From an uncultured Clostridia bacterium (GTDB lineage Bacteria; CAYTYR01; UBA6262), in contig CAYTYR010000001.1 in NCBI GenBank assembly GCA_964441745.1, forward strand, positions 239,931 through 259,930: a DNA stretch of 20,000 bases, given 5' to 3'. A program made the translations under genes and the position numbers. The stretch's first letter is position 1. Every line of letters starts with the position of its first letter. Of the stretch, positions 16,668 to 18,006 are shown piece by piece. The notes under the pieces were generated by a model, which did no database searches, had not been told where the DNA came from, and saw only the letters and a program-made list of their open reading frames with translations.

Positions 16668-16745
16668 GCGCCCTTAGCTCAGTTGGATTAGAGCGACTGA
16701 CTACGAATCAGTAGGCCACAGGTTCGAATCCTGTAGGGCGCGCCA
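16668..16745 (+). tRNA. tRNA-Arg(ACG)
   Basis: Acceptor GCGCCCT/AGGGCGC, anticodon arm ACTGA-CT-ACG-AA-TCAGT, T arm ACAGG-TTCGAAT-CCTGT, encoded CCA. Confidence 0.97.
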
Positions 16746-16868
16746 TTTACTCTCCTAGAATTTATTATTAAGTAAAAAGTAAATGGCCCGCCGACGCTTA
16801 TTGGCGGGCAAACCACAGATTAGGAAAAACAGATTACACAGATTAAAGCAAAATCCGCTAAATATTTT

Positions 16869-17303
16869 ATGGCTGAGGCGCTGAAAGAAGCGAAAAAAGC
16901 AGCGCTTAAAAACGAAGTACCAATAGGCGCTGTAGTAGTGCATAAAAACAAAATAATTGGCCGTGGCCATAACCTCTCGATCAAGAATAACAATCCGACA
17001 GCCCATGCGGAAGTATTAGCCTTAGGGCAGGCAGCAAAAAAGATCAAGAATTATCGTCTCGTAGATGCGGATATGTATGTGACCATAGAACCATGCGCCA
17101 TGTGCGCGGGAGCGATGGTTTGGGCCAGGATCAGGAATTTATATTTCGGAGCCAAGGATGCAAAAGCCGGGGCCTGTGGCAGCGTGTTTAATATTACTAA
17201 TAATAAGAAACTGAATCACCGCATCAATATACATCAGGGTATTCTGGAAGCAGAGAGCCGTCGGCTTATCCAGGAGTTCTTTAAAAAGAAAAGAAAAAAG
17301 TAA
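16869..17303 (+). CDS. tadA: tRNA adenosine(34) deaminase
   Basis: EVPIGAVVV, PTAHAE, YVTIEPCAMCAGA, GAKDAKAGACGS, LNHR. Start position uncertain. Confidence 0.95.
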   Translation: MAEALKEAKKAALKNEVPIGAVVVHKNKIIGRGHNLSIKNNNPTAHAEVLALGQAAKKIKNYRLVDADMYVTIEPCAMCAGAMVWARIRNLYFGAKDAKAGACGSVFNITNNKKLNHRINIHQGILEAESRRLIQEFFKKKRKK

Positions 17304-17304
17304 T

Positions 17305-17421
17305 GGAAGGGTGGCTCCCGATGTTAATCGGGACTCCCTGCGGTCGCGAGATATAGGGTAGAGCCAGTCTCGCCTGTCCTCCGTGTATGAAGCCGAAGGC
17401 TTCAACGGGGGGAAAACTGGT
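17305..17421 (+). pseudogene. tRNA-Ser(CGA) 5' relic 1 with two inserts
   Basis: GGAAGGGTGGC [31-nt insert] CGAG N13 CCAGTCTCG [40-nt insert] AAAACTGGT; the non-insert blocks are collinear with the tRNA at 17547. Confidence 0.85.
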
Positions 17422-17427
17422 CGTGAT

Positions 17428-17531
17428 GGAGGCGTCGCATAGTGGTTGCCCGCCGTAGGCGGGTAACAGTGCATCCGGTATCGCCTGTCCTCCCTGTATT
17501 GAAGTCGAAGACTTCAAGGGAGGGAAAACCG
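17428..17531 (+). pseudogene. tRNA-Ser(CGA)-like 5' relic 2 (different allele) with two inserts
   Basis: GGAGGCGTCGCATAGTGGTT [hairpin] TAACAGTGCATCCGGTATCG [41-nt insert] AAAACCG. D stem GCA/TGC and anticodon arm CGGT-ATCGAAA-ACCG are recoverable. Confidence 0.7.
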
Positions 17532-17546
17532 AAAATAATATGTGTT

Positions 17547-17634
17547 GGAAGGGTGGCCGAGCTGGTCTAAGGCGCCAGTCTCGAAAACTGGTATGGTCGT
17601 AAGGCCATCGTGAGTTCGAATCTCACCCCTTCCG
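17547..17634 (+). tRNA. tRNA-Ser(CGA)
   Basis: Acceptor GGAAGGG/CCCTTCC, G discriminator, anticodon arm CCAGT-CT-CGA-AA-ACTGG, long variable arm, GTGAG-TTCGAAT-CTCAC; CCA not encoded. Confidence 0.95.
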
Positions 17635-17916
17635 TATTAAATAATTAGTCTGGCAAAAAAATTTAATGTTCTTAACCTTGTCTGCTTGTAAAAATGCGTA
17701 TAAGTATAGAGAAGCAAGGGGATGACCCGCCAAAAAGATCGGCGGGCAGGCAGTGAGTTCTTTTAGATGTCCGGCAAAAAAGTGTTTTTTTGCCGGGTCA
17801 ACAAGAGGAAGGGGTTCAGCGAGCCCGTTCTGTGTGGCGAGCGACGACGAAACAGCCCGCCAAAGTTCGTTGGCGGGCCCTTGTGGAGCGAAACGAGCTT
17901 GCGTAGTGAAGCGACT

Positions 17917-18006
17917 GGAGAGATGGCCGAGCGGTTGAAGGCGTACGCCTGGAGAGCGTATGTGGGGGTGACCTCACCCAGGGTTCGAATCCCTGTCTCT
18001 CCGCCA
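17917..18006 (+). tRNA. tRNA-Ser(GGA)
   Basis: Acceptor GGAGAGA/TCTCTCC, anticodon arm TACGC-CT-GGA-GA-GCGTA, long variable arm, CAGGG-TTCGAAT-CCCTG, encoded CCA. Confidence 0.96.

Follow-up and report, generated by a model that had tools for sequence, protein, structure and literature searches.

The window analysed here is a stretch of 20,000 nt (G000:C1:239931-259930) from a 98%-complete, 2.07 Mb draft assembly (G000, the window's own genome). About 240 nt between a TadA-like ORF and a tRNA-Ser(CGA) gene contain no gene called by any tool, and the initial annotation described in this interval the same covarying hairpin, inserted at TCG^AAAAC (^ marks the insertion point), in two different tRNA-Ser relics. 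The question raised by the locus is what such a hairpin represents, and how it came to occupy the same place twice. Hairpins A and B are probably copies of a lineage-restricted, non-coding family of mobile hairpins of about 40 nt, of the REP/PATE kind, that has repeatedly entered copies of tRNA-Ser. The comparison sets comprised 61 genomes overall and 9 genomes within the phylum; the window's own family is designated f1, genomes G002, G003 and G004 belong to the genus of G000, and G006 belongs to a different genus.

Locus Layout and Anatomy of the tRNA-Ser Relics

All features tabulated for this section are on the plus strand. A tRNA-Arg(ACG) gene (16668..16745; ARAGORN, and Rfam tRNA at 70.9 bits) is followed by an ORF of 144 aa (16869..17303) that matches the Pfam families MafB19-deam (135.6 bits) and dCMP_cyt_deam_1 (100.9 bits). 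The name TadA is a likely assignment, based on the deaminase family and the neighbouring tRNA-Arg(ACG). Two intact serine tRNA genes, found by both ARAGORN and Rfam, lie downstream: tRNA-Ser(CGA) (17546..17635), the anticodon loop of which retains the target sequence CTCG^AAAAC, and tRNA-Ser(GGA) (17917..18006), with a loop lacking the target motif. The 3′ CCA (17633-17640) is not encoded by the intact tRNA-Ser(CGA) of G000, and is encoded by the G003 orthologue (L010).

The two relics, A (17305-17427) and B (17428-17531), occupy the interval from the TadA-like gene to the intact tRNA-Ser(CGA); the stop codon of the TadA-like gene precedes relic A by 1 nt. Both relics are tRNA-Ser(CGA)-like and truncated at their 3′ ends, and neither is called a tRNA by ARAGORN or Rfam. 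Candidate identities such as SRP RNA, other known RNAs and ribozymes were rejected for the region 17304-17545, where Rfam returned nothing, either at the gathering threshold or at E<=10.

Relic A starts with the first 11 nt of a tRNA-Ser(CGA) gene (17305..17315), which match, letter for letter, the beginning of the intact gene (17547). In G003, the intact tRNA begins exactly at the start position of relic A after tadA. The D-arm is replaced by a member of another repeat family (17316..17362), consisting of a GC hairpin (17317-17332) and the motif ACTCCCTNNGGTCGCG (17333-17348), for which there are 8 matches in the G000 genome. The 5′ strand of the anticodon stem and the loop as far as ...CTCG follow (17363..17372, identical to 17576-17585 of the intact tRNA), and then hairpin A (variant alpha; 17373..17412), which scores 64.9 bits with covariance model (CM) R1 and is made up of a CCTG foot, a basal stem of 8 bp, a GTA bulge, an apical stem of 7 bp and a GAA loop. 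The final part (17413..17427) holds the rest of the anticodon loop and the 3′ strand of its stem (17413-21), then 6 nt, 5 of which match the start of the T-stem. When compared with 17586-17635 of the intact tRNA, relic A lacks the variable arm, the remainder of the T-arm and the 3′ strand of the acceptor stem.

Relic B opens with the 5′ half of a tRNA-Ser (17428..17483) that, by sequence comparison, has the body type of the UGA gene but ends in ..TCG. A 19-nt GC hairpin (17449-17467) interrupts its D-loop between TTG and AG. Hairpin B (variant beta; 17484..17524) scores 69 bits with CM R1; a single indel distinguishes it from the G006 array's second hairpin. Hairpin B is followed (17525..17545) by AAAACCG, comprising what remains of the loop and some of the 3′ stem, and then by the A/T-rich 14-nt leader of the intact tRNA. 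Relic B likewise has no variable arm, T-arm or 3′ acceptor strand. Both relics, as well as the first unit of the tRNA-Ser(UGA) locus, which has a D-loop insert resembling that of relic B, were struck again later by further mini-elements in the D-arm.

Each of the two inserts is bounded by ...TCG on the 5′ side and AAAAC on the 3′ side, within an anticodon-stem-like helix, corresponding to a junction at G35^A36. The base preceding each insert and the last base of the insert are both G, and for this reason the junctions of A and B could be placed one base leftward, whereas the copies at the tRNA-Ser(UGA) locus have an unambiguous junction at G35/A36. The surrounding tRNA bodies are of two types, with relic A starting like the tRNA-Ser(CGA) of G000 and relic B having the tRNA-Ser(UGA) body, which upholds the original view that simple tandem duplication fits poorly.

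Fold and Covariation of the Hairpins

When folded as DNA, hairpins A and B have energies of -11.4 and -11.8 kcal/mol (z = -4.55 and -4.84), values reached by none of 200 shuffles. The whole stretch from 17300 to 17550 folds with z = -4.71. Between A and B, two pairs are changed on both sides, one in the basal stem (G-C to C-G) and one in the apical stem (C-G to U-A); a third pair is changed on one side (U.G to U-A), and the bulge of one has an extra T. Position, fold and paired changes of the two hairpins thus all agree with the initial annotation. Among seven distinct copies from two genomes, all 103 of 103 cells form standard pairs, and 5 of the 15 pairs change on both sides. The covariation score of these copies was not reached in 500 shuffles, and pairing fell to 61-63% when the partner was shifted by one column; both are lenient controls, as the structure was derived from those same sequences.

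A Dispersed, Lineage-Restricted Hairpin Family

Searches with BLAST and CM R1 found two copies directly upstream of tRNA-Ser(UGA) and many more at non-tRNA sites in G000. CM R1 gave 22 matches in this genome at E<=1 (with 150 of 349 candidates scored), and a scan for the foot plus the fold gave 23 copies. The family is recognised by a CCTG(T) foot, a C-rich/G-rich basal stem, a bulge of 3-4 nt on the 5′ strand and a loop of 3-4 nt. Foot, basal stem and bulge are common to all copies; the apical stem varies between subfamilies and always pairs. At E<=1e-4, CM R1 matched 6 of the 61 genomes, all of them in family f1, and none of the 54 genomes outside f1. Within the phylum set, 6 of 9 genomes have matches, with at most 30 per genome. 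A loose pattern search of genome contigs returned at least 120 matches, nearly all of them due to chance, and L068, L074 and L126 are family-like among the matches listed; a stricter pattern applied to metagenome contigs found one contig (L209), identical to the G006 locus.

The eight tRNA-associated copies all belong to one subfamily (apical stem TGAAGYC) that is seen nowhere else in these genomes, which fits better with local spread or descent than with random draws from the genome at large. Another subfamily always occurs within arrays of CCTGAT-like heptamers, in three species of the genus (G000 C9:40041; G002/G003 L152, L156 and L162). Apparent copies in long open frames are mostly upstream of the true start codon. 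A 45-nt copy at G000 C25:2272-2316 may be in frame within a 617-codon open frame, near an apparent N-terminal signal region; the protein gene may have tolerated this insertion.

Insertion Sites and Target Preference

Filled and empty versions of the same site reveal how the hairpins insert. A 46-nt copy at G000 C14:15753 is located between AATCGGTG and TAATC, and the orthologous site of G003 is an uninterrupted 13-mer. The site at G000 C14:26889 is also filled, and its orthologue in G001 is empty (TTTG|TAG). One of four paralogues of a TIR-bounded MITE is filled, at GGCTG^AAA, and the other three are empty. Neither the two orthologous pairs nor the paralogous MITE set shows duplication of target bases; the insertions are precise and non-duplicating.

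The flanks of the 23 copies, against a background base composition near 22-28% for each base, favour Y at -2 (21/23), G at -1 (16/23), A at +1 (16/23), A or T at +2 (20/23) and A at +3 (16/23). Insertion is mostly right after YG and before A/T-A. The initial annotation had proposed a site-specific, structure-constrained mini-element that targets the anticodon loop. The constraint on structure and the selectivity for site both stand, but targeting of the anticodon loop as such does not, since copies occur at many non-tRNA YG^(A/T)A sites. It had also regarded copies at unrelated target sequences as evidence against its proposal. These exist in part, in that the dispersed copies have no more than the short YG^(A/T)A context in common.

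The commonest host site of the hairpins is the 13-mer AATC[TG]GTGTAATC, which has 165 occurrences in the 2.07-Mb genome. It is often found as pairs about 22 nt apart, in intergenic positions near gene starts, and looks like a promoter or operator motif of the lineage. The window has copies of the 13-mer at 16833-16844 and 16814-16822 (both on the minus strand), and in the second a GC hairpin follows right after ...CTGTG.

Copies are also nested, one lying within the loop of another in 5 of 20 loci of relatives, and once doubly so. Landing in loops appears to be frequent, whether those of other hairpins, the MITE stem-loop or the tRNA anticodon loop, and is known from individual examples. Only 3 of 42 tRNAs have YGAWA in the anticodon stem-loop, i.e., Ser(UGA), Ser(CGA) and Phe(GAA), and the two serine tRNAs correspond exactly to the loci that bear hairpin relics. 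As the anticodon, A37 and A38 are unable to change, live Ser(UGA) and Ser(CGA) genes stay targets.

Hairpin-Bearing Relics in Related Genomes

Seven tRNA-Ser units hit by a hairpin were found in three genomes at two loci, CGA and UGA: two at each locus of G000 (one of the UGA units being shared with G003), two at the CGA locus of G006 and one at its UGA locus. All seven lie upstream of an intact tRNA-Ser, all seven lack the 3′ half, and all seven retain at least the anticodon stem and mostly the entire 5′ half. Slow decay does not explain a truncation so uniform, which suggests a link between the insertion event and truncation or partial duplication. The array is absent from the CGA locus of G003 and G004, and the UGA relic is absent from the UGA locus of G002 and G004. 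In another metagenome, 17303 and 17546 are directly joined in a DNA contig of a relative, and a second contig of the same run continues into relic A.

G000 and G003 have one UGA unit in common, with 40/40 identical positions in its hairpin and 56/58 in the spacer after it, next to an upstream gene in which 400 nt align at 300/416. This conservation speaks for constraint (e.g., a promoter in the spacer) or for recent exchange, and not for junk. The CGA arrays of G000 and G006 have the same order of hairpins (alpha, beta) in opposite orders of tRNA bodies, T1-T2-T1 in the former and T2-T1-T2 in the latter. For arrays of independent origin, such agreement would have a probability of 1 in 2; it would also result if hairpins were locally excised and re-inserted at the few YG^AAAAC sites.

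Three models were set aside. Integration of a circular unit (hairpin, spacer and 5′ half as an att-like circle) would give chimeric acceptor stems and leaves the short spacers unaccounted for. A template switch or unequal exchange by way of the tRNA's own leader is an unproven model, and the spacers are not suffixes of upstream leaders. The idea of a tRNA-derived MITE came from the likeness of L126 to relic A, and full MITE copies show that a shared nested sub-element is the source of this likeness; the MITE locus has no Rfam match either.

Alternative Explanations

An insert in the anticodon loop that folds into a compact helix resembles the arrangement in intron-bearing tRNAs, and the initial annotation had raised the possibility of a tiny intron-like unit. 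Removal of an archaeal-type or self-splicing intron from a tRNA precursor is nevertheless hardly credible here. None of the seven host units is a complete tRNA, and all four tRNA-Ser isoacceptors of G000 are provided by uninterrupted genes. The position is 35/36 rather than 37/38, and the same element is present at sites outside tRNA genes. EndA (PF01974) had no match in the 98%-complete genome, with the control positive in 4 archaea, and no Rfam intron or ribozyme was matched even at E<=10; the inserts measure 40-41 nt, against more than 200 nt for a group I core. In addition, a contig from an RNA library that covers 17266-17442 retains hairpin A, at a low depth (2.7) and as a contig that is itself no proof of transcription. 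The chances are just as slim that the relics are att-site remnants left by integrase-mediated integration and excision at tRNA-Ser, with the hairpin as the end of an element. Integrative elements usually leave a partly duplicated tRNA next to an intact tRNA gene, but the part duplicated here is the 5′ half and not the 3′ part, there are only 14-58 nt between relic and gene, and anticodon-stem sequence is found on both sides of the hairpin. The ORF list of the window has no integrase nearby, and no integrated element lies between relic and tRNA in 9 genomes.

More has to be said for readings in which the relics have a function or a single origin, even if none of them is likely. The tRNA-Ser 5′ half, hairpin and spacer might form a functional, selected module of tRNA-Ser operons, with a hairpin drawn from the mobile family. 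Such a module could act as a structured leader with promoter or processing signals, or as a small RNA resembling a 5′-tRNA half stabilised by the hairpin. We consider this unlikely, though it would account for the near-identity of the G000/G003 unit (40/40 and 56/58, beside a gene at 300/416), the presence of units at two tRNA-Ser loci in three species and two genera, the confinement of all three family copies of G006 to tRNA-Ser relics, the compensatory changes that keep pairing, the RNA-library contig over 17266-17442 and the fold of 17300-17550 (z = -4.71). Against it, genomes of the same genus do without units (G003 and G004 at CGA, G002 and G004 at UGA), and the number of units, their spacers and their tRNA body types vary among genomes. 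Further insertions abound in both relics of the window and in UGA unit 1, Rfam gave no match, the promoter and terminator scan was at shuffle level, and the depth of the RNA contig (2.7) is low and does not demonstrate transcription. Less probable still is a single ancient insertion followed by duplication, unequal crossing-over and gene conversion among tRNA-Ser paralogues, by which A and B would not be independent. Its appeal is that all eight tRNA-associated copies are of one subfamily, that the arrays are tandem, that the 5′ halves are (nearly) identical to live tRNA genes, as conversion would yield, and that the hairpins supply 40 nt of homology for exchange. A and B, however, lie in different bodies with matching 5′ and 3′ strands of the anticodon stem, the same hairpin variant occurs in different bodies in G000 and G006, the family inserts de novo at other sites, and close relatives have no arrays. 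On a par with the functional module in probability, and as such doubtful, is a sublineage specific for the tRNA-Ser(NGA) loop, maintained either by a birth-and-death treadmill, in which insertion is coupled to partial duplication or replacement, or as a domesticated leader or small-RNA module. If true, such a specialised sublineage would explain why there is a single subfamily, why 7 of 7 units consist of the 5′ half only, and why a unit is conserved near-perfectly despite a divergence of about a quarter in the gene.

Proposed Mobility and Candidate Enzyme

Repeated entry of a mobile hairpin into tRNA-Ser copies is the preferred reading. The precise, non-duplicating insertion, the short fixed sequence next to it, the footed hairpin and the landing in loops all match what Y1 HUH enzymes of the IS200/IS605 and REP/RAYT kind do, and the hairpin probably moves through single-stranded DNA by means of such an enzyme (RAYT or IS200 type) acting in trans. 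It inserts precisely, usually after YG and before A/T-A, and the invariant loop of tRNA-Ser(UGA/CGA), C-U-N-G^A-A-A-A-C, would be a target of this kind. A tRNA-Ser copy once entered would be dead. Insertion into the sole functional gene would presumably be lethal, leaving as survivors only those cells with a partial duplication or a replacement gene. The long variable arm of tRNA-Ser is the part read by SerRS, and this arm and the 3′ half may be lost fast, as a tRNA that can still be charged but has a ruined anticodon loop would be harmful.

Candidate enzymes are present, with nine matches to Y1_Tnp (PF01797) in G000. In each of the four ORFs examined, the best NCBIfam match is the REP-associated tyrosine transposase (NF047646), above the cut-off in one of the four, and two of the RAYT-like ORFs have a DnaA-like C-terminal HTH. 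The RAYT-like Y1 ORFs of G000 include those at L179:916-1863, L178:1468-2463, L210:299-952 and L182:1291-2016. Y1 genes occur in 7 of the 9 phylum genomes, and are absent from two genomes of f2, both of which are also without hairpins; G004 has Y1 genes and no hairpins. The initial annotation had suggested looking for a nuclease or recombinase gene flanked by the element, and none was found. A CM scan around six of the nine Y1 matches detected no flanking member of the hairpin family (best E-value 0.27). The Y1 genes are diverged paralogues without hairpin-family ends, and carry other flanking repeats. Neither TnpB nor a full-length IS with hairpin-family ends was found, and the single IS110 match is near no hairpin copy.

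All G000 contigs with copies have a very strong GC skew (~0.1 absolute, over 30 kb) and a gene-strand bias of 0.7-1.0, and replication strands can therefore be assigned even in a draft assembly. Nine copies are oriented with the G-rich strand and 14 with the C-rich strand (binomial p = 0.40), and the subfamilies seem to differ. The 9:14 distribution gives no sign of the strand bias expected under lagging-strand targeting.

Comparison with Known Systems

A limited literature search turned up no description of hairpin repeats in the anticodon loops of bacterial tRNAs, and the closest parallels are with several known kinds of element. IS608 and ISDra2 insert without duplication, 3′ of a specific sequence and in a hairpin-dependent manner. 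The present family is like IS200/IS605 elements and PATEs in the lack of target duplication, in insertion directly 3′ of a short specific sequence, in its DNA hairpin and in its precise boundaries. It is unlike them in that one hairpin spans the whole insert of 40-46 nt, in place of separate left-end and right-end hairpins, and in that no autonomous parent or TnpB was found; the orientation of copies (9:14) shows no clear strand bias. The Y1 mechanism of IS200/IS605 is summarised in PMC6006769.

PMC6006769 also describes REP/RAYT systems as having short imperfect palindromes with a canonical GT[AG]G foot, and atypical feet in classes 2.6 and 3. Shared with REP/REPIN and RAYT are the short bulged hairpin, the conserved single-stranded 5′ foot (kept in 23 copies), the dispersed, mostly intergenic and lineage-restricted copies, the existence of several subfamilies, and RAYT-like Y1 genes in the genome. 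On the other hand, the foot is CCTG(T) in all copies and not GT[AG]G, copies are in the tens and not the hundreds, and none of the 23 has an inverted partner nearby, as in REPINs and BIMEs, there being nesting instead. No REPtron for the hairpin family was found among the six of nine Y1 matches scanned. The family is set apart from REPs as well by its clean filled and empty sites, the flanks of which follow a defined preference, by copies nested in loops and by its entry into tRNA gene copies. It is a repeat of the REP/PATE kind that belongs to neither group, since it has no GTAG foot or paired ends, and neither a REPtron, among the Y1 matches scanned, nor a parent IS was found.

Different tRNA genes of the archaeal Thermoproteales carry mobile introns that are short, related to one another and located at one and the same position. 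Hairpins A and B resemble them in this, but are in a bacterium without EndA, their hosts are truncated, the insertion is at the DNA level and also at non-tRNA sites, and the position is 35/36. IS1397-type ISs of the IS110 family target REP hairpins, and Rickettsia palindromic elements (RPEs) are small palindromes that land inside genes. The hairpin family has in common with the former an apparent preference for stem-loop DNA as target, and with the latter a small, palindromic form. IS1397-type elements, however, encode their own transposase, whereas the hairpin is 40 nt and non-coding; RPEs are larger and known from protein genes, whereas the hairpin enters tRNA genes and the loops of its own kin.

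Other Repeat Families around the Locus

At least two further repeat families occur alongside the hairpins. Small GC hairpins of the GCCCGCC-loop-GGCGGGC type form a second family that uses the same kind of site, after TG. Its copies in the window are at 17449-17467, ~17725-17747, ~17855-17878 and ~16784-16813 (minus strand). G003 has a different hairpin at the ~17855-17878 spot, and the stretch with the 17725-17747 copy is missing from G003.

A third family consists of a GC hairpin followed by ACTCCCTNNGGTCGCG, and is represented in the window at 17317-17348 and elsewhere in G000 at C7:91566, C9:69093, C28:15719, C26:22949 and C8:48140. It is a building block of an intergenic MITE of about 250 nt with inverted ends of the ATCAG(G/T)(G/T)AACTG type, and the internal stem-loop of this MITE is a hot spot for CCTGT hairpins. 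At G000 C8:48100-48890 (L210), a RAYT-like Y1 gene of 217 aa (48198-48851) has a TTTCCACC-loop-GGTGGAAA hairpin on both sides, a REPtron-like arrangement for yet another hairpin family. A member of the third repeat family splits the loop of the upstream hairpin.

Implications

REPs are common, and the manner in which they move is poorly documented. The boundaries, flank preference, absence of duplication and self-nesting of the present family can be read from filled and empty sites, making it a handy natural substrate for testing the transposition of hairpins by Y1/RAYT enzymes. The locus also displays a cost of such elements: the invariant anticodon loop of two serine tRNAs happens to match the target. 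Dead tRNA-Ser copies have accumulated in arrays as a result, and the bodies of the genes for the CGA anticodon have apparently been swapped in two genera. For genome annotation, relics of this type account for tRNA-like fragments that are skipped by tRNA finders.
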